Positions 1,329-51,170 of a stretch of 64,000 nucleotides of DNA are shown piece by piece. This DNA is from an uncultured Anaerolineaceae bacterium (GTDB lineage Bacteria; Chloroflexota; Anaerolineae; Anaerolineales; E44-bin32). Position numbers and translations under genes: made by a program. The stretch lies in assembly GCA_964475265.1 (NCBI GenBank), contig CAYYVY010000003.1:1500-65499 (forward strand), given 5' to 3'. Positions within the stretch are counted from its first letter, which is position 1. Each line of letters opens with the position of its first letter. Under the pieces are notes generated by a model. The model saw only the letters and a list, made by a program, of their open reading frames with translations. It was not told the origin of the DNA and searched no databases.

Positions 1329-1552
1329 TAATGTTCTCCTCTTCACCCGTCCCAGCCTTTCACTCATTCCCTTTCAATCATCCTGAGCGGAACGAGATGC
1401 GCAGCATCGAGTGTAGTCGAAGGAAAGGACGCCCGCATCCCGCCTGCGTGACGGCTGTGTCACGCTGAGAACACCCCCATCGTTCGTACAATAACAACGA
1501 AGCTATTCGTGTGCGGGGAGAAGCTGACCAACTCCTCGCAGTCAGGACGTGC

Positions 1553-4480
1553 ATGCTATCCGAGCCCGCGGTCGTTTGTCCGACCTGCAATCTCTCCCAG
1601 ACTCTGGCGCAAGGCGCCAGCCAGGGGATGCGCTGCGGCCGGTGCGGTGCGGAACTTGCGCCGGTCGATGTGCGCTGGATCACCCGAGACGAAAGTGCGG
1701 GTCCGTTTGCGGCCCCATCCGATTTCTCGGCCAGCCAACACTGCGTCGCCGAACTGCTCCTGCCGGCGCACAACGAGGTGGACGAGGAGGCGGTAGGGCA
1801 GTTTTTAAGTTCGCTGCCGCTCCCGTTGGCGCTGGAAATGTACGGCGCGGGGGACCGTCGGGTGATGCTCGTCCGCGGTCGACGAAAAGACCTGCGCTTC
1901 CTGGCGGGGAAGATCCAGACGCTGTGGCCCAGCGCCGTGCTGCGCCTGCTCGACCATGATCCCGTCGGAGCATGCAGCGACACAATGGTGCCCACTATGC
2001 GCTATGATTTTTCATTCCGATTGAAAGCAGCCGGCTACCTGCCGATCCGCACGTGGAAAACATACCTGCAGGGCGATCCGCTGCACTCGCTTCTGGCGGC
2101 CATGCTCGGACTTGAATCCCACGAGCGTATCTGGCTCCAGGTCTTTCTGGCGAGGAAGAGTGAACCGGAATGGTTGGCCAGGATTCAACGCAGGCTCAAA
2201 CTTGAGTTTCAGCGCGGATACGCCATCGATGACGGCGCTGCGATCAGCGCACAGGCCGCCGCTTTTGGGCAGACGCCGCTGCCGCAAAGGATTGCCTGGG
2301 TGAACGGAATCGCATACCTGATACTCCTGCTGTTCGCCTTCGTCATGGCGGTGCTCGCCATCCAGGGGAACTGGTTTTCTTTCACCATTTTTTCCATCCT
2401 GGGCATGTCCCTCGCGGGAGTGCTCTGGCGTTTTCTCGGCCGGCCGGAGGATCCGTGGCACGAAGCCGATCTGTCGCTCGTGCGGCAGAAAGTCGTCCAT
2501 CAGGACAGCTATTATCAGGCTGTGCTGCGGGCCAGTGTCTGGGCGAAATCTCCCGGCGAGGCGCGAAATCTGGCTGAACGACTCGAGGGTGCGATGGCGC
2601 AGTATGCTGTAGCAGGAGGCAACAGCTTCATGATCGCGCCGGATCCCTTTGAGGGTCTGGGCTCATGGCCGCTGCGGCACGTCGTGCCTGACGATACGTG
2701 GATATGGCTTGGCCCGGATGAAATTGCCGGACTTTGGCATCCGCCGATCGTCAATGACCGCATCTCTCCTGGACTGGTTCCGGTGCGGGGAGTGGAGATG
2801 CGTTCACCCGATCCGCAGGATGTTATCGGGTTCTACAAGATTGGAACGTACCTCACGGCAGACGGTGTCAAGAAGGCGGTTCATGTCTCTTCCGCGGCAT
2901 TGAAGCATAACATTTTCTGTATCGGAAAACCGGATGCGGGAAAATCAACGTTGATGCTGCATCTATCCCGAGCGGCGATGGTGGATCAAGATCAGCCGGC
3001 ATTGATCCTGATCGATCCACATGGCGATCTGGTCAATGAATTTCTGGGCACACTCGATCCTGCGGATGTGGATCGAGTTCGGATTTTCGACATCACCGAC
3101 GAGGACTACGCATATACGCTGAATCCACTCGATGTCCATCGAGAGGGATGGGGCGTCATCGAGGTCACGAATTCGATCGTCGACATCGGACAGGCTTTGT
3201 GGACGAGGTATTGGGGTCCGAGAATGCAGATTCCGCTCAAGCGCGGGGTTCAATTGCTCACGGCCGCCAACGAGCTTCGCCCCAAAGACGCATGTTTGGG
3301 ACTATCCCAACTGGCCGCGGTGCTGAATGCGGATGCGGGGGTTCGCCGAAAATTCATTGCTCAGGATTTAGACGGCAGTCCCCACAGGAAAACGCTCGCA
3401 AAATATTTTCTGCATGACTATGAAGACCTCTCACGCAGTTTCCGGGAACAGGTGATTCAACCCGTTCTTTCGAAGGCTCATCGTTTTGAAGAAGAGCCGA
3501 TGCTGCCAATCTTCAGCTGTCCCGAATCGAAATTGAACGTCGGTGAGATTGTGCGCAATCGCAATGTCCTGGTGATTAATACCGGCAAGAACAAGTATGG
3601 ATCTGAAGTGAGTGACTTTGTGGGCTCGTTAATGATCAACATCGTTCTCATGGAATTGATCCGGCAGGGGGAGAAAACATCCCACAACCGTGTGCCGGTT
3701 CTGATCGTGATTGACGAATTTCAGACTTTCACGGGTGTTTGCTGGGAAGACCTCGTACAACAAATGCGCAAATATGGTGGCCGTATGATCCTGGGAACGC
3801 AATCCATGGCCAGTCTTCGAAAACAAAATCCTGAAATCCCTGAAATCATTTTGAGCGGTGTGTATTCCCTTTTTGCTTTCACGATGAACGGAGACGATGC
3901 GGCGTATATTTCGAAAAATGAACTTAGCGGTGAGAAGGGTGGACCCAGTGCCGATACGCTCATCAGCCTCGAACCGCACAAGGCGTACGTGCGTCTTGAA
4001 CGGCAGTCTGGAGGGCTAAGTCGCCCCTTCTATTTTGAAAGCGAACCTCCTCCTGAATACGATCAACTCCTTGCCGATCGCGTCCTCAAATTACGCGCCA
4101 ATTATAGTTTCCCATATCAAGCCGCCATGCAAAATGCACTTGAAATGCTTTCGATTTTCGACGGACACGGACGGGCGATGAGCACGTTGGGGGTCCATGC
4201 GACCCAATCTCAACACCCGGTGTACGCCACTCGATCGCCGGCGTTTGGTGTCGGGTTGTCCGGAAGAGAGATCGATACGCTACGCGATTGTCTAGAGGAT
4301 GTTAAGTTGCCCTGGCAGGCTTGTGCTGGCAGTAGCGGGAATTCTTATATTTCTGACGACTTCCAAAACATGGCGGCAGAAGGAGAAATTGCGGCCGAAG
4401 AATGGAGGGATTTCATAGCGGGGTTTGAAGGACCACTGAAAAACCAGGACGAAATGGGGGAGGAGGCGAATTCATTGTGA
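1553..4480 (+). CDS. membrane-anchored zinc-ribbon / type IV coupling protein-like (VirD4/TraD, FtsK-HerA superfamily) P-loop ATPase
   Basis: ORF 1511-4480; the ATG at 1553 is preferred (AGGA 5 nt upstream). Motifs in order: CxxC-x15-CxxC (nt 1577-1645); two adjacent hydrophobic helices (IAYLILLLFAFVMAVLAI / FSFTIFSILGMSLAGVLW); Walker A GKPDAGKST (2924-2950); LILIDPHGDL; TLNPLD; Walker B VLIVIDEFQTF (from 3698); RKYGGRMILGTQS. This is the motif order of TraD/VirD4-type ATPases. Confidence 0.65.
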   Translation: MLSEPAVVCPTCNLSQTLAQGASQGMRCGRCGAELAPVDVRWITRDESAGPFAAPSDFSASQHCVAELLLPAHNEVDEEAVGQFLSSLPLPLALEMYGAGDRRVMLVRGRRKDLRFLAGKIQTLWPSAVLRLLDHDPVGACSDTMVPTMRYDFSFRLKAAGYLPIRTWKTYLQGDPLHSLLAAMLGLESHERIWLQVFLARKSEPEWLARIQRRLKLEFQRGYAIDDGAAISAQAAAFGQTPLPQRIAWVNGIAYLILLLFAFVMAVLAIQGNWFSFTIFSILGMSLAGVLWRFLGRPEDPWHEADLSLVRQKVVHQDSYYQAVLRASVWAKSPGEARNLAERLEGAMAQYAVAGGNSFMIAPDPFEGLGSWPLRHVVPDDTWIWLGPDEIAGLWHPPIVNDRISPGLVPVRGVEMRSPDPQDVIGFYKIGTYLTADGVKKAVHVSSAALKHNIFCIGKPDAGKSTLMLHLSRAAMVDQDQPALILIDPHGDLVNEFLGTLDPADVDRVRIFDITDEDYAYTLNPLDVHREGWGVIEVTNSIVDIGQALWTRYWGPRMQIPLKRGVQLLTAANELRPKDACLGLSQLAAVLNADAGVRRKFIAQDLDGSPHRKTLAKYFLHDYEDLSRSFREQVIQPVLSKAHRFEEEPMLPIFSCPESKLNVGEIVRNRNVLVINTGKNKYGSEVSDFVGSLMINIVLMELIRQGEKTSHNRVPVLIVIDEFQTFTGVCWEDLVQQMRKYGGRMILGTQSMASLRKQNPEIPEIILSGVYSLFAFTMNGDDAAYISKNELSGEKGGPSADTLISLEPHKAYVRLERQSGGLSRPFYFESEPPPEYDQLLADRVLKLRANYSFPYQAAMQNALEMLSIFDGHGRAMSTLGVHATQSQHPVYATRSPAFGVGLSGREIDTLRDCLEDVKLPWQACAGSSGNSYISDDFQNMAAEGEIAAEEWRDFIAGFEGPLKNQDEMGEEANSL

Positions 4481-4604
4481 TGGTCCAGTATGGTCCGAAT
4501 GTCTACGATGGAATAAATCCGGCAGTCAATCTCAGCAGTATGCGTTTGCCTGAACGATAAACTTAGGCACTTACATTGCGTATTAGAGGAGATTTGGGAA
4601 AACG

Positions 4605-4634
4605 GCACGGCACGCTGATACCGTGCATTTGTTG
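4605..4634 (+). terminator. weak candidate intrinsic terminator after the ATPase gene
   Basis: GCACGG-10 nt-CCGTGC followed by ATTTGTTGG. The stem is short and the U-tract poor. Confidence 0.25.
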
Positions 4635-4696
4635 GAAGTTGATTTTGATGGTAAACGGGACGGTTTCATTCGTCCTGAATGGGGGAGTGAAAAAGA

Positions 4697-4909
4697 ATGG
4701 GCGAGACACAGGAAGGTATGGATGTCGATGATGCTGATCGTCAACCCAAAGAAGAATCTGACGAGCGAGACGAAGTTGTTGACGGGATCATGTGCGGCTT
4801 GGAGGCAGGCGAGGGGGATGTACAGGCGGAGGCGATTTCTTACTTTCATCCCATACCGGATGAAGAGCTGGACGTTTCCGGTCTCGAAGTGCCCGAAAAA
4901 GAGGACTAA
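4697..4909 (+). CDS. hypothetical small, strongly acidic protein (70 aa)
   Basis: GGGGGAG lies 7 nt upstream of the ATG. The product is rich in D/E (MGETQEGMDVDDADRQPKEESDERDEVV...). Overlapping ORFs exist in two other frames, so the coding frame is uncertain. Confidence 0.35.
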   Translation: MGETQEGMDVDDADRQPKEESDERDEVVDGIMCGLEAGEGDVQAEAISYFHPIPDEELDVSGLEVPEKED

Positions 4910-4941
4910 AGCATTTATTGGACTCACAAGGATGACGAAGA

Positions 4942-5163
4942 ATGGACGATCAAGCATCCATCGAACAGGATATTGACTGCGTCGATCGCCTTTGGATAGA
5001 GGATCTTGCGTGGCGAAACGATCATTCCGGTGTTATGGAGTACAAGGGGAGAGCTCAAGAGGGGTTCATCGGCTACATTAATAAAAATCCCTTGCTGGTA
5101 TCAATCCTAACATTCATTATCGGGGGAATTGCTTTTTACATTGTTAGTCTGATTCTTATATGA
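4942..5163 (+). CDS. hypothetical small protein with a C-terminal transmembrane anchor (73 aa)
   Basis: AAGGA lies upstream of the ATG. The C-terminus LLVSILTFIIGGIAFYIVSLILI is one hydrophobic helix. Confidence 0.35.
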   Translation: MDDQASIEQDIDCVDRLWIEDLAWRNDHSGVMEYKGRAQEGFIGYINKNPLLVSILTFIIGGIAFYIVSLILI

Positions 5164-5302
5164 GTAGTGATCATCCATGAGGAACTACTCAAACGTTTAA
5201 TCGAAGAATGAGAATTCTGCATTCGGCGATTGATTTTTGATAAGCGCGATGATTGTGTCTCTTCTTTTGAAGGGGATGTCTCAATCAAAAAAGGAGGGTT
5301 TC

Positions 5303-5575
5303 ATGATGGATCATAATGTTGAAGGGACAACAGAAAAGTTAACGTTGCTCTACATCGGCCTGGGCCTTTCTATACTTGGAATTATCATCATGTTTGCATT
5401 TGGCCCAGGTCTGTCTTTCACGATTGGGTTGATCGCCACGGCTTTTGGTTTTATTTTCTTCGGTGTGGGACTTCGATCTCGAATCATGAGGAAAAATCCC
5501 GCATTAGGCAATCTCGTAGTCGTCGCAACATCGTTGTCCAGTGTCATTTTGATCGCCTGGTATTTACTCTTTTAG
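5303..5575 (+). CDS. hypothetical small integral membrane protein (90 aa, about 3 TM)
   Basis: A strong RBS AAGGAGG (5291-5297) lies 5 nt before the ATG at 5303, which is internal to track ORF 5237-5575. There are three hydrophobic segments. Confidence 0.5.
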   Translation: MMDHNVEGTTEKLTLLYIGLGLSILGIIIMFAFGPGLSFTIGLIATAFGFIFFGVGLRSRIMRKNPALGNLVVVATSLSSVILIAWYLLF

Positions 5576-5699
5576 GGCTTGCGTTCATCCATCACGAACG
5601 CTGCTATTTTGGGGATTAAATCAACTCCTCCTCGAAGGAAACGTATAGGAACTTTTGGGGGACTCAGGGGTTCGACCAAGTCCTGGCTCAGGATGAAAG

Positions 5700-6104
5700 A
5701 TGGGGATACAGGATCAATCCAGGTTGGTTGTCCTATCGGACGATGATGTAATTGCCGATAGTGTCATTTATTGCTGTTCTCGAGATTCGCGGCGCAAGGG
5801 ATTGTTGGGTAGATCTCAACTTGCTGTGAACGAGGGGATTCTGATGGCGATGCCAGTCTACCGCAAAGGGAAAGCGGGCGTCGTCAATTCCATACATATG
5901 CTGGGTATGCACTTTTCTATCGCAGTTGCCTGGCTGAATTTCGACGGAAGGGTTGTTCATTCCAAGCTTGCCAAGAAATGGCATCCTTACTATGGGACTT
6001 CCCATCCGTCTTGGTATATTCTCGAGCTTCACCCCTCAAAGCTTTCGTTGTTATCAGAAGGAACGACCATTCAATGGAAGGTTTGGCTGCCGAACGAACT
6101 CTAA
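5700..6104 (+). CDS. DUF192 (COG1430) family protein
   Basis: KGLLGRSQL..EGILM...SIHMLGMHFSIAVAWLNFDGRVVH...SWYILELHPS matches the remembered DUF192 pattern (GLMgr..gmlf..h.fwM....lDiifld.dG.Vv....a.yvLEl). Confidence 0.55.
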   Translation: MGIQDQSRLVVLSDDDVIADSVIYCCSRDSRRKGLLGRSQLAVNEGILMAMPVYRKGKAGVVNSIHMLGMHFSIAVAWLNFDGRVVHSKLAKKWHPYYGTSHPSWYILELHPSKLSLLSEGTTIQWKVWLPNEL

Positions 6105-6124
6105 ACCGGTTTGTAGGAAGCGAG

Positions 6125-7402
6125 ATGACCGTATCAGATTCCATGAAATTTCCACTTGACCTCGAGGACGTGATGGATTGGGCATTTTGTCCTTTGCGAG
6201 TCTGGTGGAAACGAGGGAAACATGATTCGAAAGTCGCCGATGTCGGAAGCAGCTGTACGGCGGATGGACTTGTGCGCCAGTCGATTCTTGCTGCAATTCG
6301 TTTGTACTACCGAGCTGTACGTAAAAGGGCGGAATTTACATTTGAAGAAAGCCTCGGTTTGATTTGGAGAAAATGGCTCAACGCCTGGAATTTATCCGAC
6401 ATCCTTGCCCGACCTCTGGTGGATTACCAACACCGGCGACGTTCTTTGCTGTGTAGATTCAAAGCGGCGACATTTCCCGGACAGAATGGGGCAGGCTATC
6501 GGAGTCTCATGAGGACACGTCAATGGCGGGAATTGGCTGAATCCCACAGACTTTCAAATCTGCGCAGGTTCATCGACAGTCAAGCGAAGAATACTGGCTT
6601 AGAAGTCATCGGACTTCCCGACAGAGAACATCACGGATCACCGATCGGCCTTGCGGATGCCTATTCGGATTCCGTGGACATGGCGGCTTACATCCGTTTG
6701 CCCGAAGCCAGCAGTGTAATTGGCGTAGGTGTTCCTATGGTGGTCGATTTGCCATCTGTCAGCCTGAACTGCCGAGCAGATATTGTTCGTGAAATCGGAA
6801 GATCGAGAGGCGTTGGGCGGCCCTCAAAGGATCCAAAGCGTACCGGCGGCATTCTAAAACTCGAAACCATTCTCCTAATATTTGACGAAGAATTTCCTTC
6901 TCTTCAGGGTCTGGCCAGGGATTTGCGTATCTTGGCATTTGGTAAGGCACGATTGGATCCCCATAAGCATGCGGAGAGAAATATCGTTGAGCGGGTAAGC
7001 CTCTACCACCTTCCGTCCGGGGAGCATCAGGATTTCACGCCTCGTTTGCATGAAGGGCTTGAGCTATTGGATTCAATCTCAAGTTCGGTGCTTACTGGAA
7101 TGCACCAGTCTGTGTATGTTCCTCGCATGGTATGTGGACGGGAAATATGCGGGGGTTGTGAATACTATGTTCACTGTTTTTCAGCAACGGATGTTATGGA
7201 AGTATTTGCTGCCACGCCTATGGCTCATGTCGATGCAAGCCACCCCGACCTTGATCGATTGATGGCGTTCATGATAGACAACTTTTCCTCCGTAAGCCGT
7301 GTTGATGACTTACGTGCAATTCTGGAATTCATGGTGAAGTCCGGCTCGTCTCCTGAAGGCCTGTTATGGCTGCTAGAGAAGATCGAAGCGGAACGATCAT
7401 GA
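6125..7402 (+). CDS. Cas4/AddB-like PD-(D/E)XK-family nuclease candidate with a 4-Cys (Fe-S type) signature
   Basis: Start chosen at ATG 6125 (AGGAAG 4 nt upstream), after the DUF192 stop. There is a single N-terminal Cys in DWAFCPLRVWW and a C-terminal CGGCEYYVHC = C-X2-C-X5-C (nt 7148-7177). That is the Cys arrangement of Cas4/AddB iron-sulfur nucleases. The D...ExK catalytic motifs are not clearly recognisable (RADIV ... LKLET). Confidence 0.4.
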   Translation: MTVSDSMKFPLDLEDVMDWAFCPLRVWWKRGKHDSKVADVGSSCTADGLVRQSILAAIRLYYRAVRKRAEFTFEESLGLIWRKWLNAWNLSDILARPLVDYQHRRRSLLCRFKAATFPGQNGAGYRSLMRTRQWRELAESHRLSNLRRFIDSQAKNTGLEVIGLPDREHHGSPIGLADAYSDSVDMAAYIRLPEASSVIGVGVPMVVDLPSVSLNCRADIVREIGRSRGVGRPSKDPKRTGGILKLETILLIFDEEFPSLQGLARDLRILAFGKARLDPHKHAERNIVERVSLYHLPSGEHQDFTPRLHEGLELLDSISSSVLTGMHQSVYVPRMVCGREICGGCEYYVHCFSATDVMEVFAATPMAHVDASHPDLDRLMAFMIDNFSSVSRVDDLRAILEFMVKSGSSPEGLLWLLEKIEAERS

Positions 7403-8964
7403 AAGATCTCTTCCGAAGACGCACCGTGCGATCGCGGCGACGATTTTTTCTATACATCGCAGGTATTTTTATCATCGCCATCAGCGGCGCGATTGCGATT
7501 TCGTCATCTTTGTTTCCACTGTATACGCGCGTTGGAAATTGGAGCGATGTCGTCCTACAGATTTTTATCGCTTTTCTTGGTGCCCTGATGGGCATCTTGC
7601 TCATCATCGCCGCACGTCAAGAAACAAAGGCATTAGATCTGTTCGACTGGTTGCAGGAATTGAACTCTCTTCTCGCAGGGTTATCGGCCCCACTCAATGC
7701 CGATAGTATCTATCCAGTCTGTGAAAAAATGTTAAGTGTTTTCACCGAAAACGCAGGTTGGATTCTATTAATTCGAGCTCCCGGCTTGCTAATTCGAGGT
7801 GAAGTAAAAAGGCGCAAGTATCTTCCCATCGTTTCCGCCAATTTAGACAGTGAGTGGAATGTCCATTGGGCTGAGAATTACCTCAAAGACTTGATTGAAA
7901 ACGTCGATGGAGACAAAGATCGTGTCACGGCTAGGGTATTGAAAGTCGCTAGGCAACCGGAGGGCACATGGTCGGCAGATATGGCGGACAAGTCCTTGAT
8001 CGATCAAATTGAAGTTGGCTACCAGCCTGGCGGCGCATCATGGAGACATAGATTGTTCTCAGGACAAAAAGCCGAAGATACTCCTGTGCTCGTATGGACG
8101 TCTAGCGTTAAAACTGGAGATATCTCTACTGGAATGGCGATCGGCCTGGGGGAGAAAAATTCGATCCCGGACACGATGACATTGCAGGCATTGACGACCA
8201 GCCTCGATTTGCTTGTGCAACGCATTGGCAGCATCTTGACAGAAGTAATCCAGCGACGTGAAGGATTGGGCATCGAGAACCTAGGCTTGATCATGCGTGT
8301 ACTTGCTCATGAGACCAACAATGATCTCCAGGGGGCGCTCAACACCATGGACGCCTTCTCCATCCCGGCCACAGAGATTTCAAGTGACCAGCTAATAAAG
8401 CTGCGCGCGATGCTTGCTCGGGCTAGTCATTGGAGTCATCTGATGCGTGAAGCGCCGTTTCTGGTAGATAACGTGCTTCCCGTTGAAAGGGACATCGTCT
8501 CTCTTTCGAATTCGCTTCGTCAGACACTTGACGAGATTCGCCAGGCCTGGCCCGACCTATCATTCGTTCTGAAATTTCCGGATGCCAGTGATACGCTGGA
8601 AGTTGTGGGAGATCAACATATATGCTCGATCATCCGCAACCTGCTGCACAATGCGGCTTCCTTTTCCCCAGAAGAAGGAACCGTGACGGTAAATGTTGTG
8701 GTTGATGACGAGTGCGCGCACGTTTCCGTCCATGATGAGGGCCCGGGAGTGGACCCGGCGGACACCGATAAAATTTTCTCTCCTTTGGCGAGTTACAAGG
8801 AGGGAAGGCGAGCGGGTGTGAGGGCAGATTATGGGATGGGGGTTGGATTGACCATTTCCAGGGCGATAACGCGTGCCTATGGCGGGGACTTACTCTGTTT
8901 CAGCAATACGCAAGAAGGTGGAGGCTGTTTCGAAGTTACCTTTCCCTTGGCGTATGAAGACTAA
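7399..8964 (+). CDS. sensor histidine kinase (2 N-terminal TM helices, no obvious periplasmic domain)
   Basis: The ATG at 7399 overlaps the upstream stop (ATGA). H-box LAHETNNDLQGAL; N-box IIRNLLHNAASFS; G1 HDEGPGVDP; F IFSPL; G2 GMGVGLTISRA. Confidence 0.85.
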   Translation: MKDLFRRRTVRSRRRFFLYIAGIFIIAISGAIAISSSLFPLYTRVGNWSDVVLQIFIAFLGALMGILLIIAARQETKALDLFDWLQELNSLLAGLSAPLNADSIYPVCEKMLSVFTENAGWILLIRAPGLLIRGEVKRRKYLPIVSANLDSEWNVHWAENYLKDLIENVDGDKDRVTARVLKVARQPEGTWSADMADKSLIDQIEVGYQPGGASWRHRLFSGQKAEDTPVLVWTSSVKTGDISTGMAIGLGEKNSIPDTMTLQALTTSLDLLVQRIGSILTEVIQRREGLGIENLGLIMRVLAHETNNDLQGALNTMDAFSIPATEISSDQLIKLRAMLARASHWSHLMREAPFLVDNVLPVERDIVSLSNSLRQTLDEIRQAWPDLSFVLKFPDASDTLEVVGDQHICSIIRNLLHNAASFSPEEGTVTVNVVVDDECAHVSVHDEGPGVDPADTDKIFSPLASYKEGRRAGVRADYGMGVGLTISRAITRAYGGDLLCFSNTQEGGGCFEVTFPLAYED

Positions 8965-8990
8965 CCAGACCAGAATGGAGGACGAAGATT

Positions 8991-9746
8991 GTGGCACAAA
9001 GGGATTACGAAAGGGTTGTCATCGCAGAAGATAATCAAGAGCGTGCTTCCGAGATGATGCAAATTCTCACAGTAATCGGTGGATTTGATGTATCGATTAC
9101 GAAATGGAGAGCCGAAGTAGACAATCTCGTCAGCACGACAAACGCCGGATGGCTTATCCTTGATTTGAACCTTGAAGATGGAAATTCGGCAGAAATCGTG
9201 CCTTTACTTCGGGAACGATATGGGGAAGAACTGATAATCATCATTTTATCTGGATATTATGAAGATTTTCCCGAATGGGATTTGTTGTCCTGCGGAGCGG
9301 ATCTATATCTCAGAAAGCCGTATCGACCAAAGGCAATGCTTCAACAAATGGAAACGCTGCGAGCCCGTATGAGAGGGCAGGCACTGAAACAATCCACCAG
9401 CATCAAGCTCAAGATTGGTGATGGCGTTCTCGATCTGGAACGAGCGATTTATAAAAAGGGAACGATGGAAATTGGTATTCCACACGTTCAGATCAAGTTG
9501 ATCCGACTGCTGGCGTCGGCGCGCGATAATGATGGCTGGAAGTTCGTTGAACGCCCAGAAATCATCATGCATGTATGGGGTGAAGACTTTGAAGTGGACC
9601 CGATCACAACGACGGAGCGGCTGCGGAAATTGAGAAACCGAATCCGGAACACGTTGGGCATGGAGATTACCGACAGCATTCAATCGAGCACGAAGCGACT
9701 TCCCAGATATCGACTGATCTCGGAGATTAAGGTTATCGAGGAATAA
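8991..9746 (+). CDS. OmpR/PhoB-type response regulator (receiver + winged-helix)
   Basis: GTG start with GGAGGA upstream. Receiver residues: IAEDN, ILDLNLEDG, ILSG, LRKPY. The C-terminal region (VQIKLIRLLA...ERLRKLRNRIRNTLG) looks like trans_reg_C. Confidence 0.85.
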   Translation: MAQRDYERVVIAEDNQERASEMMQILTVIGGFDVSITKWRAEVDNLVSTTNAGWLILDLNLEDGNSAEIVPLLRERYGEELIIIILSGYYEDFPEWDLLSCGADLYLRKPYRPKAMLQQMETLRARMRGQALKQSTSIKLKIGDGVLDLERAIYKKGTMEIGIPHVQIKLIRLLASARDNDGWKFVERPEIIMHVWGEDFEVDPITTTERLRKLRNRIRNTLGMEITDSIQSSTKRLPRYRLISEIKVIEE

Positions 9747-9785
9747 AAAAGTGTTTCCGTCAGTATTCGAAAAGGATCGGTAGAC

Positions 9786-10859
9786 GTGCCTAAAACCCCG
9801 CCAGGTTTCCATTTACCTCCTTTTGTCATGGTGCCAGAGGATCTTGAAGAGGTAGCCCTTCACGTCGAAGAGAACCTTGCTGCTGGTCGCGAGGAGATGT
9901 TTTGGCCCATCTCCACAGGATTTGAGCCCATCGATCGATACGCGGGTGGGGGACTCCATGCCGGCGATCTGACGATCGTGGGGGGTGTACAGAACGTCGG
10001 TAAAACAGCGCTCGTGCTTCAATGGGCCAATCACCTCGCCGTCAACGACGCCCTTGCCATTGTCGTTTGTTACGAGCACAACACAATCACGCTTTGGGAA
10101 CGTCTACTCTGTCAGAACTCCTATATTGCCAATCGCGAGGAACACATCACTATGGATTTACTCCGTCAGGCATACATCGAGGCAATTCGAGAGCGTGATC
10201 GGATTCAAGTCAATGCGTCCCACGACAAAATGCATATGCTCGACGAGGTCCTTTCGAGGATACCGAGAGGAACTCGAGCCTGGTCGACTCTGACCGACCG
10301 CATCCGCAACATCTGGTTGGTCATGGGCGATGGCGTGAATACAGATCTCGTCTCATTGCGCCGCTATGTTGAGCTTGCCGTTCAACACTATAATAAACCC
10401 AGGGTTGTGCTCTTTATCGATTACGTACAGCGAGTCCCGGTAATTGATGCCTCAGGCGCGCTCGAGACTGAAGAGCGCATCGAGCGAGTTCTGGCGGGCT
10501 TGAAAGGTCTAGCGATGCGGACGACAGCCCAGGGGGCTGTCTTGTCCGTTGTTGCGGTTGGCGCCGCGGATGATGATGGTCTTCGTAAGGGAAGAGTGCA
10601 TCTCGAGAATCTCTGGGGGAACCCCATCATGCAGTATGAGCCGGACGTTGCGCTGATTGCCAACCGGGATGGTGTCGATACAGATGGTGTTCCGTTGGTG
10701 CGTTGGTCGCTGGAAAAAAACCGGCGAGGTCAGAGCAATATCGAGTTTCGTCATCGCTACCACGGTGCCGCATACTCCTTTGAACCAAACGGTGTAATAA
10801 TTGGCCACAATGAAAGCTGGCAATCTGAGCGTGATGGATGTGAAAACCGATGCGAATGA
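9786..10859 (+). CDS. DnaB-C-terminal-like / KaiC-like RecA-fold ATPase (no DnaB N-terminal domain)
   Basis: FEPIDRYAGGGLHAGDLTIVGGVQNVGKTALVLQWANHLA (Walker A); VCYEHNTITLWERLLCQ; Walker B VVLFIDYVQRV (compare DnaB IDYLQL); ENLWGNPIMQYEPDVALI (compare DLReSG.iEQDAD). The start is uncertain (GTG 9786 or ATG 9828). Confidence 0.6.
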   Translation: MPKTPPGFHLPPFVMVPEDLEEVALHVEENLAAGREEMFWPISTGFEPIDRYAGGGLHAGDLTIVGGVQNVGKTALVLQWANHLAVNDALAIVVCYEHNTITLWERLLCQNSYIANREEHITMDLLRQAYIEAIRERDRIQVNASHDKMHMLDEVLSRIPRGTRAWSTLTDRIRNIWLVMGDGVNTDLVSLRRYVELAVQHYNKPRVVLFIDYVQRVPVIDASGALETEERIERVLAGLKGLAMRTTAQGAVLSVVAVGAADDDGLRKGRVHLENLWGNPIMQYEPDVALIANRDGVDTDGVPLVRWSLEKNRRGQSNIEFRHRYHGAAYSFEPNGVIIGHNESWQSERDGCENRCE

Positions 10860-10947: not shown

Positions 10948-11541
10948 ATGAACGCCTTCGTGGCCAGTTTTACGACGGCGCTTTTAATCTGGGCAGCGCG
11001 GCTAGACCTAATGACCAGGAAAATCCCCAGAGGTGCTGGTTTTGGCGTCTTGGCCATCGGTCTCTTCGTTCTGCTGTGGAATCAGCTTTGGATCGAAGCA
11101 TTGTATTACGTTCTCGCGATCTGGTGTACTTCGGGAGGCGTTTGGACGTTGCTGTTAATCCTTGCCTCACTGGCAACTGCATTCGTCCGCGGCGGGGATA
11201 GCATCCCGCTTGTTTTAGGCCTCGTTATTATTTCTGTGTTTTTTTGGATGCATTGGTTCGGTGGTGGGGATGCGCAGCTCGCCATCGGACTTATTGGGAT
11301 CGGCCACGATTGGGCCATTCTTGCTTTTCTGGTTGGAGCAACAATTATCTCGATGATTTTTCTTGTTTTCCGAAGACATGGAGTGACAGAAGGTCTCAAG
11401 CGGCTGCACCAGGTTTTTCGTAATCTCGCCGCAAAACCGGACGCACATGCGATCCGTACACCTTGGGCGGTGATTGCTATGATTGCGGGCATCTTGTATC
11501 TTTGGTTGTGGCCTTTGTTCATCGGAGGCAGCTCGGTATGA
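10948..11541 (+). CDS. A24-family prepilin peptidase (CpaA/TadV type, peptidase domain only)
   Basis: Polytopic membrane protein with the two catalytic Asp contexts AARLDLMTRKIP and FGGGDAQLAIGLIG. Confidence 0.75.
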   Translation: MNAFVASFTTALLIWAARLDLMTRKIPRGAGFGVLAIGLFVLLWNQLWIEALYYVLAIWCTSGGVWTLLLILASLATAFVRGGDSIPLVLGLVIISVFFWMHWFGGGDAQLAIGLIGIGHDWAILAFLVGATIISMIFLVFRRHGVTEGLKRLHQVFRNLAAKPDAHAIRTPWAVIAMIAGILYLWLWPLFIGGSSV

Positions 11542-12014
11542 GAAAAATCGTATTGGTTGCCGGCATAGTTGCGATGATCGTCGCAGGATGTTCCATCTTC
11601 GGAAAAGGAACAGACGAGGGCGTACCAGAGGAAAATGTCGCGGCCGGTGACGGAACTCCGCGTGTGATCAGCGGCCAGGAAGCGCTGCAGCTCTACGGCG
11701 TCGCAACGGAAGATCCGGTTTCGATAAAACCGACGAGCACGCCGCTCTATTACTTCCCGGCGCGCGCCTGGGTCCTGCCCAACGAGATTCCCTACGATCC
11801 GCAGGAGACGATCACCATCCTGCCCATGTTCACCCGTCCGGCGTTGAACGACGGCGGCACCTGGCTGGGGGACCTGGAAGCGGGCGCCGAAGTCGTGCTG
11901 CAGGGAGTCAACGCCGACCGCACGGCCTGCCTGGTCGAAGGGCTTACGCTGCAAGGCTGGAGCACCATGGGCTGGGTGGCCTGCAACCGGCTGAGTTTCT
12001 ACGAGGTGGATTGA
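11538..12014 (+). CDS. lipoprotein with C-terminal SH3b-like domain
   Basis: The ATG at 11538 overlaps the peptidase stop (ATGA). Signal and lipobox MRKIVLVAGIVAMIVAGC. The C-terminus LEAGAEVVLQGVNADRTACLVEGLTLQGWSTMGWVACNRL is SH3_3-like. Confidence 0.5.
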   Translation: MRKIVLVAGIVAMIVAGCSIFGKGTDEGVPEENVAAGDGTPRVISGQEALQLYGVATEDPVSIKPTSTPLYYFPARAWVLPNEIPYDPQETITILPMFTRPALNDGGTWLGDLEAGAEVVLQGVNADRTACLVEGLTLQGWSTMGWVACNRLSFYEVD

Positions 12015-13548: not shown

Positions 13549-13590
13549 AACGGTGCCCGCGATAAGCGGGCACCGTGTTTGTTGCGTGTT
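13549..13590. terminator. bidirectional intrinsic terminator between convergent genes
   Basis: CGGTGCCCGC-GATAA-GCGGGCACCG (10-bp stem). It is followed by TGTTTGTTGCGTGTTTT on the plus strand and by a T-rich run on the minus strand. Confidence 0.7.
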
Positions 13591-16146: not shown

Positions 16147-16662
16147 TCAATTCTCCCCGTCGGCCTGCTGCAGGCGGTAGAGTAAACGATCGATCTCCGT
16201 CTGCGGAGGTGCAGGAGAGGATCCTTGATGGCGGCCAACCAGCGCCACCAGATCGTCCGAACCTCCTGCGGCGCGGATGATTTCGGCACTCCAGCGGGGA
16301 TGCTGTGCGGCGATGACGAAGGGACGCCGCCAGCCGCGTGGTTCTGCGTTTCCCCAACGTTCGACCGCCCGCGGAAACAGCGCCGTGGCCAGCACGACCA
16401 GTATACGATCCCACAGCTGCGGGGGGTGATTCGCTTTGCCCACGTCGTGCAGCAGCGCTGCGGCACACAGGGTCGGGTGGGCATCGTCGGCGCGAATGGC
16501 GCGCAGGACTCGAACGGCGTGAAGTTGATCCGAGCAGCTCATGCGCCGAAAGGCATCTAGCAGGGAGGGAGAGAGGGTGTTTTCGATGAGCAGCTGGTCT
16601 TCCGGAGACAGTCTGGCGAAGAGGGCGTGGATGAATTGAGAGGCCCGGTATTGAATTTTCAT
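16147..16662 (-). CDS. HD domain-containing protein
   Basis: Start taken at [10 protein letters not shown] (the ATG at 16662 overlaps the M50 stop, ATGA). HAVRV...AALLHDVGK is an HD motif. The upstream part of track ORF 16147-17142 is antisense shadow of the M50 gene. Confidence 0.65.
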   Translation of the reverse strand: MKIQYRASQFIHALFARLSPEDQLLIENTLSPSLLDAFRRMSCSDQLHAVRVLRAIRADDAHPTLCAAALLHDVGKANHPPQLWDRILVVLATALFPRAVERWGNAEPRGWRRPFVIAAQHPRWSAEIIRAAGGSDDLVALVGRHQGSSPAPPQTEIDRLLYRLQQADGEN

Positions 16663-17306
16663 ACGCTGAAAACGAGATTTTGGAAGATCACATCCGCCGG
16701 CGCGCCGATGACCAGATCGAACAGATTGAAGCCCGTTACGTTTCCGATCAGAATGATGCCGATGAGAATCATCGGACCAAAAGGCCGCAGACGATAGAGC
16801 ACGTCCTGTCCGCCCGGCGGCAGGAAGAATGCGGCAATTTTCTCGCCGTCGAGCGGGAAAATGGGCAGGAGATTGAAAAAGAGCAGGATGAGGTTGTAAA
16901 AAATGAACAGCAGTAAGAAAGGGGCCACGATGCCGGCGATCTCCGGCTCGATGCTGCCCGAAGAGAACAACCCCATGCGGAACGGCAGTGATGCGAGGAT
17001 GGCGAGGAGCAAGTTCGAGAATGGCCCCGCCAGAGCAACGAGCATGAATCCGGCCGGCGTCCGTCGACGCAGGGCGAAGTAGTTCACGGGGACCGGTTTC
17101 GCCCAACCGAATCCGGCGATGACGAACATCAAGGAACCCCAAAGATCGAGATGGGCGAGCGGGTTGAGGGTCAATCGGCCCGCCAGGCGCGGCGTGTCGT
17201 CTCCCAATTGATCCGCAGTCCAGGCATGGGCAAATTCATGGATGGAGAGGGACAGCACCAGGGTGATGATGAGAGATGCGATTTGAAGCGGTTCAAGCGA
17301 TAACAT
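16659..17306 (-). CDS. site-2 protease (M50) family metalloprotease
   Basis: HEFAHAW (HExxH) inside a TM helix; polytopic; LNPLAHLD motif. Confidence 0.8.
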
Positions 17307-29565: not shown

Positions 29566-31677
29566 TTATGGCGTGCAGGGATCTCCGGGGACGGCGCCGT
29601 CGGGGCAAGGAACGGTACACACCGGGTCTCCGCCCCTTTCGGATTGGACCAGGCAACCGAGGATGGGGGTCTTCGTCGGCAGCGGAGCGGGAATGTAGAC
29701 CTTGGTGCCGTCGACGTCCCCCTCGGTCTCGACGATAGCCCGCAGAATCCAGCAGATTCCATTCCAATCCGGGTTGTTGATCACCAACCAGGTTCCCTCC
29801 TGATTGCGGCCGATCACTTCGGCGCTTTCGCCCGCCAGCAGGTAGCCGGCATCTTCGTAATCGGTGCTGTCGCCTTTGCGGCAGGTGGTGTTCTGGGGGG
29901 CGAAGAGCATGGGCACGAGCGGCTCGGGCGTGGGTGTTGCGGTAGGTTCTTGCGTGGGTTGTTCGTCTGCAGAGGACGTATCACCGCCTTCGCTTTCGAG
30001 TTCGAAAGCGCCGGTGTCACAAGCGCTTCCCGAAGGTTGCGGTCTCGAGACGCCGCGTTGATCCTGCGCCACCGCAGCGGCGGCAACATCGCTGCAGTCG
30101 GTGACAAGATTGAAAGCGATACTGGTGGATGAGATGGCGAAGGTCGGTGTGAAACCACCATTATCGCTGAAGCTGCCCAGCATCGGATCCATGTTGATCG
30201 AAATACCGGGGCAATCACCGACATTGTCAATATTTTCACCGAGGGCCTGGAAGGATCCACCTCCAATATCACAATTTTCCTGCATGCCGGGATCATACAA
30301 AATGCTGTTCTTGATCTGCGTGTTTCCGACGATTTGGAATATCGATTTGCCTCTATCGGCGCTCCCGGCCTTCAACGTTGCGAAGCTTAAGGAAAGATCG
30401 CCAACGTTCAAGATGTTGGCGCCATTTTGGGACACAATGTTCGAGGAAAACGAGACGTTGGTTGCGATGACCTGTCCATGGTTAATGATTGCGCCTCCAT
30501 GATAAGCGATGTTTGAGTCAAAGGCGGATTCCTGAATTGTCGCGGTGCCCTGGTTGTATATGGCTCCGCCCGTAGCGTACATGCCCAGCGTGTAATTCTG
30601 GATGAAGTAAGTTTCGCTGATGTCTACGCTTCCGGCTTCATTATAGATGCCACCGCCGTGTCCAGGACTTCCCGCGGGAGGTTGAAGGCCAGCGGTGTTG
30701 TTCTCGAAGGTGATTTCGTCCCTTAGGGTGAGGTCCCCGTTATGACTGTAGATCGCGCCGCCATTTTGCGCACAACCGTTCAGCTCGAAAAGGGTGCTGG
30801 CGATGTCGAAACGACCGTTCCAGATGTAGATCGCCCCGCCGTTGCTGGGTGAGGTAGAATTTTGGACCATCGCTGTGTTCTCATGGAAGGTATTTCCGCC
30901 GAGGGTAAAGCGGCCGTCTTCGGCGTAGATGGCGCCGCCATGCGAGCGAGATTCATTGTTGAGGAAGGACACGTTGTAGAAGGCGAACTGCGCTTCGGCG
31001 CTTTCGCTGTAAAGCGCGCCGCCCTGCCAGGCGATGTTTTCACGGAAGGTCGTGTGGTTGAGAGTCATGGGGATGCCGACGTCCCCGGCGCTGAAGATAG
31101 CTCCACCTTGGTATGCGTGGTTGTCCAGGAAAATCGTGTCCTGATCGGAAGTGACGGTTCCGCGGTTGAAAATCGCGCCTCCGACGGTTTGACTGAGATT
31201 GGCTTCCAGGGTTACCTGATTCAAGGTGAGTCCACCTCCGTCGTTATAGATCGCGCCGCCGCCGGGATCGACTTCATCTGGATTTTCCTCGCTTCTGCCG
31301 CCGTATAAGCTCATTTCGTCTAACCGCAAACCGCCTTCAGCGGTAATGAAGAAGAAGCGAAATTTGTGGTTCGCCGATGGAGAACGTTGCAGCAGCGCTG
31401 CGTTGCCGTTGATGCGCATATTCGTGGTGATGATCGGGAGTGCGTTGTAGCCGTGACCGCCGTCGTCGTTATCCGCGGAATTGAAGGTGTAGGTGCAATT
31501 CGGATCGAGATGGATGATGGTGGTGTCGTTGTTTGCGTTGGCTGTATTAATGGCGTTGACCAGGTCGTTCACGCTGCAGTTGACATTGATTTCGGAGGGT
31601 GGGTTGCAGCCGGCAAGCAGGATAGTGATGAACAAGGCTGTAAATATCAAGGCGCTGGATTTCATTTTTATATTCAT
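29566..31677 (-). CDS. secreted lipoprotein with polymorphic-membrane-protein-type (GGAIxN) beta-helix repeats and a C-terminal SH3-like domain
   Basis: Lipobox ILLAGC. There are more than 10 repeats of GGAIYN/GGAIFN/GGALYS at roughly 25-aa spacing. A Thr/Pro linker follows, then EDAGYLLAGESAEVIGRNQEGTWLVINN (SH3b-like). Confidence 0.65.
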   Translation of the reverse strand: MNIKMKSSALIFTALFITILLAGCNPPSEINVNCSVNDLVNAINTANANNDTTIIHLDPNCTYTFNSADNDDGGHGYNALPIITTNMRINGNAALLQRSPSANHKFRFFFITAEGGLRLDEMSLYGGRSEENPDEVDPGGGAIYNDGGGLTLNQVTLEANLSQTVGGAIFNRGTVTSDQDTIFLDNHAYQGGAIFSAGDVGIPMTLNHTTFRENIAWQGGALYSESAEAQFAFYNVSFLNNESRSHGGAIYAEDGRFTLGGNTFHENTAMVQNSTSPSNGGAIYIWNGRFDIASTLFELNGCAQNGGAIYSHNGDLTLRDEITFENNTAGLQPPAGSPGHGGGIYNEAGSVDISETYFIQNYTLGMYATGGAIYNQGTATIQESAFDSNIAYHGGAIINHGQVIATNVSFSSNIVSQNGANILNVGDLSLSFATLKAGSADRGKSIFQIVGNTQIKNSILYDPGMQENCDIGGGSFQALGENIDNVGDCPGISINMDPMLGSFSDNGGFTPTFAISSTSIAFNLVTDCSDVAAAAVAQDQRGVSRPQPSGSACDTGAFELESEGGDTSSADEQPTQEPTATPTPEPLVPMLFAPQNTTCRKGDSTDYEDAGYLLAGESAEVIGRNQEGTWLVINNPDWNGICWILRAIVETEGDVDGTKVYIPAPLPTKTPILGCLVQSERGGDPVCTVPCPDGAVPGDPCTP

Positions 31678-47493: not shown

Positions 47494-49035
47494 CTACGGC
47501 TTCGTGAAAGGCCGATCTTTCTCCTCGATCATCTTAAGCATTTCTTGCTGCAGTTGCGAAGCAATTGTCGGATGGGTGGTGAGTAGATTCTGCAATTCTT
47601 CCGGATCATCGCGCAAGTTGTAGAGCTCGTACACACCGTCGTGCCCCTCGTAGCCGCGGTAGTGGATCAATTTGAAATCGCCTTTGATCATCGCCACCGT
47701 CGCTTTGCGTAAAGGAGCCAGTTTGGGGTTGCTTTTGGCTTCAACGACGAAGATGCTTCGCTCGCTGGGATGATCTTGTGCGGCATATGGGGGAAGAACC
47801 AATCCTTCACACCACGAAGGGATTGAACGACCGGCAAGGTGAAGCAGGGTAGGCAGAATGTCGATACAGCTTGTGGGGAGATAGACGTCCTGACGCTCTT
47901 TCTGACCGGGCCGTGTAATCAACAGCGGGACACGGACGATCGGTTCGAACAACGTAGGTGTGGTGTGTTTCCATATCTTGCGTTCAAACATCTCACCATG
48001 GTCGGACGTCAGCACGACAATGGTGTTGTCGTAGAACCCATTGGTTTCCAGATAATGATCCAATCGCCCGAACTCCGCATCGACGTAGGCGATGTATTCG
48101 TCGTAGAAGACGCGTTTCTCGTCCAAAACGTGCTGCCGATCTTCGAAGTTGGCAAAGAAATGATCGGGTTTCGGCGTTGGCGTCCAACCATCCCAGAAAA
48201 TGTTTACAAATTCCTCGCGTGGGCTGTAGGGATCATGTGGAGGCATCATGTGTAAATAACTGATGAAGGGTTGAGGCCACTCGGTCATTTGTTCTTGGAT
48301 CCAATCAATCGTCTCTTCGAGCGGGTAGAGCATGTCGTGATATCCCGGTACACCGCGGGGAAACCTTCGTTCCAAACGTCGCATTATGGATTGGTTCACG
48401 AACTTCTTTATCGACCATAAGATCGGGAAAAGGAAAAGAGAATTGGACGGTTCTCCCGGTTGTTTGTAATGACTGCGTTCGCCCTGGGAAGCGATACCAT
48501 AATCGCGCCGGAAGAGGTTATCGGAGACATTGAAGTCCACCAAGGCGATTTGATTGGGGAGTGTGAAAAGGTCGAGGTTTTGTTGGAGATAGAACAAAAT
48601 GATGTTTACCAAGAGATTGTGGGAAAACCCGACGCGGGTGTAGGTCTCTGCGTTGAATTCGCTGAAAATATTTCTGGAAGTGAATGAATCAAGCGGGGTT
48701 GCGTGGTGGCTGAATGCCCGATGCGTCCAGGGGAGCGTTCCGGTGAGTATGGAGGAGGTGCCGGGCGTGGTGAAGTTGCCGCCGGCGTAATGGTTGTGAT
48801 AGACGGTTGCTCTCTCTGCAAAGCGTTTCAAGTTGGGTGTCGTCTCCCGATGGAATCCGTAGAGAGACACATCGCGGGCTGCGAGCGTGTCGAAAACTAC
48901 GATGAGCACATTGGGTTTGTTCGCATTGGTTTTATTCCGGCCAAACGAAGGACTGGAGCCGGCAACCCACGGTGTGGCGAGCGAGATCAAGGAAGCCATT
49001 TTCAGGAATTCGCGCCGGTTAATTTTTGGTCTCAT
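47494..49035 (-). CDS. Tat-exported sulfatase-fold (alkaline-phosphatase superfamily) enzyme, Thr-type nucleophile motif
   Basis: Tat motif NRREFLKM. Metal and active-site motifs VLIVVFDTL, NFTTPGTSSILTG (TxPxT where sulfatases have CxPxR) and LTSDHGEMF. Confidence 0.75.
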   Translation of the reverse strand: MRPKINRREFLKMASLISLATPWVAGSSPSFGRNKTNANKPNVLIVVFDTLAARDVSLYGFHRETTPNLKRFAERATVYHNHYAGGNFTTPGTSSILTGTLPWTHRAFSHHATPLDSFTSRNIFSEFNAETYTRVGFSHNLLVNIILFYLQQNLDLFTLPNQIALVDFNVSDNLFRRDYGIASQGERSHYKQPGEPSNSLFLFPILWSIKKFVNQSIMRRLERRFPRGVPGYHDMLYPLEETIDWIQEQMTEWPQPFISYLHMMPPHDPYSPREEFVNIFWDGWTPTPKPDHFFANFEDRQHVLDEKRVFYDEYIAYVDAEFGRLDHYLETNGFYDNTIVVLTSDHGEMFERKIWKHTTPTLFEPIVRVPLLITRPGQKERQDVYLPTSCIDILPTLLHLAGRSIPSWCEGLVLPPYAAQDHPSERSIFVVEAKSNPKLAPLRKATVAMIKGDFKLIHYRGYEGHDGVYELYNLRDDPEELQNLLTTHPTIASQLQQEMLKMIEEKDRPFTKP

Positions 49036-49042
49036 TGAATAC

Positions 49043-49561: not shown

Positions 49562-49611
49562 CGTTGCTTGACCTCGCTTGGAGATAGTCTCGTCATTTTA
49601 GAGAGGCAAGG

Positions 49612-51162: not shown

Positions 51163-51170
51163 AGTATGGC

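Follow-up and report, generated by a model that had tools for sequence, protein, structure and literature searches.

A predicted Cas4/AddB-like iron–sulfur protein without the canonical catalytic lysine, encoded in a DUF192 and two-component gene cassette of Anaerolineales

We have analysed a 425-amino-acid (aa) protein encoded in a 64-kb stretch of DNA from an uncultured Anaerolineaceae bacterium (contig CAYYVY010000003.1; the whole stretch is called the window below), directly downstream of a gene for a DUF192 protein. Its predicted fold assigns this protein, hereafter the target, to the Cas4/AddB 'iron-staple' branch of the PD-(D/E)XK superfamily, within which it is highly divergent. In the reading that we favour, at slightly better than even chances, it is a Cas4-like module that binds DNA ends or single-stranded DNA (ssDNA), is probably non-canonical or inactive, and serves a mobile-element cassette for DNA processing and regulation. 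The features on which this reading is built are listed here; residue counts, in the list and throughout, are taken from an hmmalign alignment of 158 distinct family sequences spanning the region.

5700..6104, + strand: DUF192 protein, 134 aa, cytosolic, without signal peptide; PF02643 at E=7e-8.
6125..7402, + strand: the target, 425 aa, a predicted Cas4/AddB-like Fe–S protein of PD-(D/E)XK fold, as judged from the AlphaFold (AF2) model, Foldseek and the PF12705 matches of relatives.
6188..6190, + strand: Cys22, presumed first cluster ligand, in the motif DWAxCPxRVWW (FCPLRVWW in the target); 158/158.
6779..6781, + strand: Asp219 (RADIV), motif II equivalent, on core strand 212–227 of the model; 137/158.
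6815..6823, + strand: Gly231-Arg232-Pro233, an AT-hook-like loop that separates core strands 2 and 3 and does not vary in the close clade.
6857..6865, + strand: Lys245-Leu-Glu247 (LKLET), motif III Glu with Lys at −2 and not at +2, on strand 243–252.
7148..7177, + strand: C342-x2-C345-x5-C351 (C342-GG-C345-EYYVH-C351), presumed cluster ligands 2 to 4; 158/158 each.

The DUF192 reading frame closes with a TAA stop codon that ends at 6104, and the ATG of the target follows at 6125 after a spacer of 20 nucleotides (nt), which confirms the arrangement described in an earlier note on this DNA. The upstream gene is a genuine DUF192 gene as well: it scores 32.9 bits against PF02643, above the Pfam gathering cut-off of 27, and the profile of its orthologues matches the DUF192 structure 3PJY (E=0.004). 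A longer open reading frame (ORF) for the target, starting at 5978, would overlap DUF192; all homologues begin at the methionine of 6125, and a Shine-Dalgarno-like AGGAAG can be read directly 5–10 nt 5′ of that ATG. The protein has 8 cysteines in 425 residues, and simple arithmetic gives a chance of ~0.003 for a C-x2-C-x5-C arrangement. Both an ORF artefact and a chance cysteine pattern were considered and rejected, given that the four cysteines are conserved in all 158 family sequences. The same note had placed one cysteine near the N-terminus and a C-x2-C-x5-C at 7148–7177, and these positions proved exact.

To establish the fold we relied on structure prediction. AlphaFold reached a pLDDT (predicted local distance difference test) of 66 with a shallow alignment, and of 86.3, with a predicted TM-score (pTM) of 0.85, when the alignment held 71 sequences. 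A restriction-endonuclease-like α/β core is present in the predicted fold. In the model, a short N-terminal strand and a helix bear Cys22 and are followed by a long helical insertion (46–189). The chain then continues as a β-hairpin formed by 198–208 and 212–227 (with D219), the GRP loop, strand 243–252 with K245-x-E247, helix 260–273 with D266 and R268, strands 286–295 (H295) and 300–304, and helix 312–327, after which come the Cys-rich segment and a C-terminal helical domain (357–424). Foldseek searches of the PDB with both models put ACE1 (9IAC, 9IAB) first, with an E-value of 2.7e-4 and a probability of 1.0 for 9IAC. The next matches were AddB (3U4Q_B), the type I-C Cas4 8D3L_I, the Cas4 protein SSO0001 (4IC1) and AdnA/AdnB, followed by Dna2, Exo5, MGME1 and RecE; other fold classes did not appear before E ~0.3. 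Up to that value the comparison returned no non-nuclease fold, and the relationship to Cas4/AddB-like iron–sulfur nucleases that had been proposed from the cysteine spacing finds support in the predicted fold, the top matches all being Cas4-type Fe–S nucleases. At the level of sequence profiles, PF12705 (PDDEXK_1) was matched by 9 of 36 relatives at E<=1 (best 3e-6), one alignment covering the entire profile; most of the relatives' matches lie at or under the 22-bit cut-off and one reaches 22.3 bits. The target protein gave no match in NCBIfam, PHROGs or PADLOC. Searches of PDB chain sequences with the target and the family profiles were discarded, as they returned chance matches only, for instance the DBS exchange factor.

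Conservation across the family was then assessed. A word-indexed search with the target found 23 homologues, which carry no descriptive names and share no Pfam domain across the family, those with named sources coming from metagenome-assembled genomes (MAGs) of Anaerolineales. An exhaustive profile search extended the family to 103 cluster representatives (50% identity clusters) at E<=1e-3, all of them unannotated. Among 18 close homologues there is no variation at C22, C342, C345 or C351; these four are the sole invariant columns of the 71-sequence alignment, whose members are 17–50% identical, and each is present in 158 of 158 sequences in the hmmalign alignment. Alignment of the homologues therefore shows the four cysteines to be universal, as the presence of a cluster had been taken to require.

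The residues expected of a nuclease centre follow another pattern. The D219 position is occupied by Asp in 137 sequences and by Ala in 12; Glu, Asn and Gln occur there twice each, and Ser, His and Val once each, so that the position is without any acidic residue in 19/158 (~12%). The motif III Glu (E247) is kept in about 149/158. A catalytic Lys at Glu+2 was found in 0/158 family sequences: 86 sequences have His there, whereas the window's clade has Thr, Ile or Ser and the target itself Ile. Lys at Glu−2 (K245) occurs in 55/158 and is confined to the window's clade. Other well-kept positions are D266 (133/158), R268 (135), H295 (130), G299 (145), P333 (152) and R334 (137). The earlier note had found no clean D...ExK triad and had named RADIV and LKLET as the best candidates; the missing triad is a trait of the family as a whole, and the two segments contain the Asp of motif II and the Glu of motif III that the family conserves, on core strands 2 and 3 of the model. 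The QxxxY motif is likewise not found in the family, and helix 260–273 has a conserved R265-D266-L-R268 (RDLR) instead, an equivalence drawn from the order of secondary-structure elements and not from superposition. The GRP loop, invariant in the close clade, is kept in about half of the family, with a weak Pfam AT_hook match in two members; it resembles an AT-hook core and might contact DNA.

Loss of the motif II Asp with all four cysteines retained is seen in the L015–L017/L055–L062 clade, in L026/P0127, and in P0028, P0030 and P0096 (locus and protein handles of this analysis). Scattered as they are over several lineages, these losses appear to be independent. Since the cysteines are strictly kept while the Asp is lost recurrently, the Cys cluster is the most constrained feature of the family, above any putative catalytic residue. 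Canonical nuclease chemistry, for its part, looks dispensable, because the Lys is never present, QxxxY is replaced and the Asp is lost in ~12% of sequences. The same observations point to Fe–S-dependent DNA recognition or binding, and not canonical exonucleolysis, as the probable conserved job.

These residues also lend themselves to a different account, in which the target would be a fully active nuclease with a non-canonical centre, composed of D219 and E247 with the His at +2 or, in the window's clade, with K245, R268 and H295. It would then work as a 5′–3′ ssDNA exonuclease or flap endonuclease with the DnaB_C-type ATPase encoded nearby and an element primase, much like phage Cas4-like/RecB-family exonucleases or Dna2/AddAB helicase–nuclease pairs. 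Asp is indeed kept in 87% and Glu in ~94% of sequences, yet the Asp has been replaced in 19 sequences of several lineages while the cysteines stayed invariant. Similarly, the Glu shares its strand face with a conserved His (86/158) or Lys (55/158), but the +2 His is itself missing from the window's clade, and the family offers neither a Lys at the canonical position (0/158) nor a QxxxY motif. The top structural matches are all active nucleases, a DnaB_C ATPase is present in 24 of 26 loci, and primase fusions and neighbouring primases occur. On balance, we give this account a minor, though real, share of the probability.

Comparison with known proteins places the target in an unusual position. 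With Cas4 (SSO0001, 4IC1; type I-C, 8D3L) it shares the PD-(D/E)XK core, the N-terminal Cys within CP(R)xx(W/Y/F) together with a C-terminal C-x2-C-x5-C (PMC3466216), and the motif II Asp and motif III Glu on equivalent strands. Unlike Cas4, its family is without the Lys of (D/E)xK and without QxxxY; in the window there is no CRISPR array, and the neighbour genes scanned gave no credible cas-family match; and the target is twice the size, owing to a ~130-aa helical insertion, the GRP loop and a ~70-aa C-terminal helical domain. The nuclease domains of AddB and AdnA–AdnB share the four-Cys spacing and the fold (structural matches 3U4Q_B, 4CEI_B and 6PPU_A), whereas the target stands alone instead of being fused to a superfamily 1 (SF1) helicase, is devoid of the catalytic Lys, and has as its partner ATPase a separately encoded protein of RecA/DnaB_C type. 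Work by Yeeles et al. in 2009 reportedly found the AddB-type cluster to be needed for the binding of broken DNA ends. ACE1, the best structural match (TM 0.37–0.50 on the target), is likewise a stand-alone Cas4-family accessory of a partner system (PMC12094033); it differs in being described as an enzyme that acts with a prokaryotic Argonaute (pAgo), while there is no Argonaute in the target locus, the identity is ~10% and the target family has no Lys. The nucleocapsid protein TP1 of TTV1 provides a precedent for a Cas4 fold without catalytic residues that has been kept for DNA binding (PMC4625639, PMC5704561), although in the unrelated context of an archaeal virus capsid.

The literature frames these differences. 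AddB and Cas4 have the same four-Cys arrangement (PMC3466216). A phylogenomic survey found the PD-(D/E)XK catalytic motifs kept in every Cas4 protein and presumes these proteins to be active (PMC5704561); a single inactivated derivative is cited, the DNA-binding nucleocapsid protein of TTV1 (PMC5704561; see PMC4625639). The target family departs from this rule, and its 103 clusters, with the putative Fe–S 'staple' perfectly kept and no Lys, would constitute a natural experiment on the role of the cluster apart from catalysis. Catalogued contexts of Cas4/PF12705 proteins comprise CRISPR, phage exonucleases, UvrD/COG1205 helicase pairs, type III restriction–modification (R-M) systems and a Cas4 clade on conjugative plasmids of Burkholderiales (PMC5704561). 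PF12705 proteins of phages, plasmids and helicase fusions resemble the target family in that some of its members score near threshold and in their association with mobile elements and helicases or primases, whereas none of their contexts (UvrD fusions, type III R-M, Dcm/Vsr, COG1205; PMC5704561) matches the target cassette. Thus no catalogued Cas4/PF12705 context corresponds to the one described here.

The remaining genes of the cassette and its upstream neighbours, all on the same strand, are as follows.

1511..4480, + strand: VirD4/TraD/TrwB-like (HerA–FtsK superfamily) ATPase, 989 aa; TrwB_AAD_bind 3e-8, TraG-D_C 1e-5.
4942..5163, + strand: small membrane protein, 73 aa; found by tblastn at the same position in 6 loci; no Pfam match.
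5237..5575, + strand: small membrane protein, 112 aa; some of the related loci have a conserved counterpart.
7399..8964, + strand: membrane histidine kinase with 2 transmembrane helices, H-box AHETNND and HATPase_c at 1.7e-18.
8991..9746, + strand: OmpR-type response regulator; Response_reg 5.6e-10, Trans_reg_C.
9786..10859, + strand: DnaB_C/KaiC/RadA-like RecA-fold ATPase, 357 aa, without the DnaB N-terminal domain; DnaB_C 1.2e-13.
10948..11541, + strand: prepilin-peptidase (A24)-like polytopic membrane protein with the Asp motifs ARLDLMTRKIP and GGGDAQL.
11538..12014, + strand: predicted lipoprotein with signal peptide and lipobox VAGC, the last conserved cassette gene.

The ATPase at 1511–4480 combines an N-terminal CxxC...CxxC zinc ribbon with transmembrane segments, and its Walker A and B motifs are intact; further matches are to the NCBIfam VirD4-like CD1115 model (3.9e-6) and phrog_5156 (6e-24), and orthologues of it lie upstream of the cassette in 9 loci. 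The kinase frame is open from 7366, with an in-frame ATG at 7399 that overlaps the target stop codon (ATGA). Overlaps of 4 nt or 1 nt between target and kinase recur in related loci, and this recurrence suggests that the two genes may be translationally coupled. The second ATPase (9786–10859) matches the PHROG DnaB-like helicase at 1.5e-15. The match of the A24-like protein to Peptidase_A24 is weak in the window (0.017) and stronger in orthologues, and no pilin or secretion ATPase gene was recognised alongside it. The lipoprotein ATG overlaps the A24-like stop codon in the same way (ATGA); orthologues, with faint SH3_6 matches, are found in most loci.

To see which of these neighbours are stable partners, we fetched 82 loci representing 56 distinct target sequences, a sample biased to Anaerolineales owing to search patterns derived from the close clade. 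A DUF192 gene lies directly upstream of the target in 40 of 50 assessable loci; in 6, all of the distant branch, its place is taken by a different HATPase_c kinase, and in 4 neither is present. The pairing is seen down to 25–26% target identity, with an 8-nt gene overlap in some such loci. Downstream, a kinase follows the target directly in 40 of 42 loci, one of the two exceptions having a kinase 3.6 kb away, and a response regulator and a DnaB_C ATPase are found in 25/26 and 24/26 loci. The DUF192 pairing is hence real but lineage-specific, the kinase, regulator and DnaB_C ATPase being the deeper partners. The earlier note was right about the tight pairing in itself, which is confined to one lineage; it had missed the deeper kinase, regulator, DnaB_C and A24-like context. 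Two ideas about neighbouring genes were tested and rejected, namely that L007 has a divergent DUF192 in the 167-aa protein encoded ahead of the target, and that the 514-aa protein of the 'long' loci is a homologue of the upstream kinase of the distant branch.

The DUF192 proteins of this family form a subfamily with invariant residues of their own (RRxG, SIH, LExH and W), in which an N-terminal signal sequence is not evident. Membership of the upstream ORF in DUF192/COG1430 (PF02643, 3PJY) is genuine; the structure 3PJY was deposited as a 'hypothetical signal peptide protein'; compared with DUF192 at large, the window's subfamily is distinguished by being fixed beside a Cas4-like gene. As a clade-specific partner, DUF192 is probably a subunit of a complex. 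Among the DUF192 papers listed by a literature search (15 of 22), none dealt with a function for DUF192 or with a pairing with a Cas4-like gene, and for UPF0127 and COG1430 no papers were returned. With the target, this widespread domain gains a concrete and testable partner.

Domain fusions provide a second type of association. In P0115 (701 aa) a histidine kinase is joined to a Cas4-like domain, and its N-terminal 330 residues share 34–44% identity with the kinase whose gene immediately precedes the target in the distant branch. P0089 and P0108, whose N-terminal regions are 50% identical, consist of a domain with DxD and SGNGxH motifs, a Cys/His-rich segment and a Cas4-like domain. The N-terminal domain of these two matches the PHROG 'DNA polymerase/primase' at 1e-4, and we read it as archaeo-eukaryotic primase (AEP)-like. 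The fusions, as read from sequence, link the Cas4-like domain with kinase signalling on the one hand and with DNA priming on the other.

The constancy of the kinase raises the alternative that the Cas4-like Fe–S domain is the input, or sensor, module of the adjoining two-component system: DNA-end or ssDNA binding, or oxidation of the cluster, would alter the kinase, and the OmpR-type regulator would in turn control transfer or replication genes. The kinase directly downstream in 40/42 loci, with ATGA-type overlaps, is what such an arrangement would look like, although adjacency may merely mean co-regulation. In the distant branch the target lies between two kinases, and the downstream one, of ~270 aa, has no transmembrane or sensor domain; the window kinase, on the other hand, carries its own transmembrane and GAF-like region. 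P0115 unites the upstream kinase with the Cas4-like domain, but this fusion is a single sequence. We know of no precedent for a Cas4-fold sensor of a histidine kinase. The cysteines are better conserved than any catalytic residue, whereas the cluster in AddB and Cas4 is regarded as structural (PMC3466216). We therefore consider a sensor module unlikely, and we are equally doubtful of its more specific form, in which a Cas4-fold Fe–S pseudo-nuclease would be the DNA- or redox-sensing input of a kinase/regulator circuit that times replication or transfer of the element, with DUF192 as a dedicated cofactor. If true, it would be the first nuclease-derived Fe–S sensor for two-component signalling, and would offer the first functional handle on DUF192.

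Several observations bear on how the cassette is carried. Flanks beyond the block are unrelated from locus to locus, and one Anaerolineales genome (MAG_101, CBDAFF01) has two diverged DUF192–target cassettes, L012 and L017, on different contigs. Relatives add a Replic_Relax relaxase and a DnaA_N-containing protein. In the distant branch, a VirB4-like P-loop_TraG ATPase, an M23 hydrolase, a DUF87/TrwB-like ATPase, Replic_Relax and a DnaG-like primase are encoded 5′ of the block. At L027 (1–9300) the cassette stands beside ParB and ParA, a Shedu SduA_C gene, an Mrr_cat/NA-iREase gene and a RES–Xre toxin–antitoxin pair, and this region looks like a plasmid or island with defence cargo. The unrelated flanks, the two copies in one MAG and the relaxase, VirB4-like and ParAB neighbours indicate that the block travels as a unit; judged by these gene contents, Anaerolineales and related uncultured bacteria appear to carry the cassette on conjugative or mobilisable elements. 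No target homologues were found in PLSDB plasmids or IMG/VR viral contigs. In the window, the G+C content is 0.48–0.50 at about 4000–10000, as against 0.55–0.62 in the flanks, which is consistent with horizontally acquired DNA.

The mechanism that we propose for a DNA-binding, probably non-canonical or inactive module is as follows. C22 and C342-x2-C345-x5-C351 most likely ligate a 4Fe–4S cluster, the alternatives being 2Fe–2S or Zn, as discussed for relatives (PMC3466216, PMC5704561). Held together by this cluster, the N- and C-terminal segments would enclose the restriction-endonuclease-like core, itself extended by the ~130-residue helical insertion (46–189), the GRP loop and the C-terminal helical domain (357–424). 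The target would bind DNA of the element at 5′ ends, ssDNA or junctions of single- and double-stranded DNA, and any cleavage would proceed through a non-canonical site formed by D219, K245-x-E247, R268 and H295. DUF192, the target, the histidine kinase, the response regulator, the DnaB_C-type ATPase, the A24-like peptidase and the lipoprotein make up a closely packed operon unit that travels with the VirD4/TraD-like coupling ATPase. Within this unit the target could serve DNA processing, that is, priming or loading of a helicase (the DnaB-like ATPase) on transferred or replicating DNA, and it could also, or instead, relay the status of the DNA to the adjoining two-component system.

A number of points weigh against this reading. 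The Foldseek E-values and TM-scores are modest (TMt 0.37–0.50), and the target itself has no Pfam match at E<=0.1, PF12705 and PF01930 included. Most members still keep D219 and E247, and a non-canonical active site could be completed by the His at Glu+2 or, in the window's clade, by the Lys at Glu−2. Variation, relocation or replacement of the catalytic Lys is known to be tolerated by PD-(D/E)XK enzymes. The P0115 fusion, as one sequence, could be a read-through or an assembly artefact. Of a conjugative backbone the window copy has only the VirD4/TraD-like ATPase; it has no relaxase, VirB4 or integrase gene within 64 kb and sits amid housekeeping genes, and a related MAG has the same TetR neighbour. 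No tRNA gene and no convincing flanking direct repeats were seen in the window either; given these absences and the shared TetR neighbour, the window cassette may be domesticated, or a reduced or decayed remnant. Finally, Fe–S binding and the type of cluster, DNA binding, the lack of nuclease activity and any link to signalling or replication are all inferred, here from sequence and modelling, whereas the predicted fold, the conservation of the cysteines, the states of the motifs, the synteny and the fusions are shown. The structural assignment, for a predicted model, is solid and the context is unusual. The fixed link to a two-component system, a DnaB-like ATPase and primases nonetheless suggests that gene transfer by conjugative-type elements in this little-studied, largely uncultured phylum involves a control or DNA-processing step not yet described.

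Association with CRISPR (Cas4 sensu stricto) was considered and rejected: there is no CRISPR array in the 64 kb, and no credible cas-family match was obtained among the scanned neighbour genes. An HD-domain protein encoded at 16147–17142 on the − strand shows a very weak Cas3_HD similarity (E ~0.01); as there are no helicase or cas genes nearby, it is probably unrelated to CRISPR. A broader possibility is that the target is defence or anti-defence cargo, for example interfering with host CRISPR adaptation or belonging to an unrecognised anti-phage system. Mobile-element Cas4-like proteins do exist, and one phage version perturbs CRISPR (PMC5704561), but arrays and credible cas-family matches are missing here, as just stated. 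Shedu, Mrr and RES–Xre genes do lie near the cassette in L027, yet the target gene sits in the conserved backbone and not in variable cargo; and whereas the ATPase at 1511–4480 weakly matches the PADLOC mad8 (4.7e-10) and DndH models, no PADLOC match was obtained for the target, DUF192 or the rest of the cassette. A defence role thus appears very improbable.

The block is flanked in the window by a TetR gene and by housekeeping genes (an aminotransferase, prephenate dehydrogenase, MetRS and MetH), and scans for promoters and terminators stayed at background level. At 13550–13576, 3′ of the aminotransferase gene and at the right edge of the island, there is a perfect 11-bp GC-rich inverted repeat, ACGGTGCCCGC...GCGGGCACCGT, which is probably a bidirectional terminator. 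Other stretches of lower G+C content occur in the window at ~30–32 kb, 38–40 kb and 48–54 kb. Two further regions, both on the − strand and unrelated to the target, are a gene for a 703-aa protein with Chlamydia-PMP repeats at 29566–31677 and a run at 47494–53523 that encodes two sulfatases and a phosphodiesterase-family protein.

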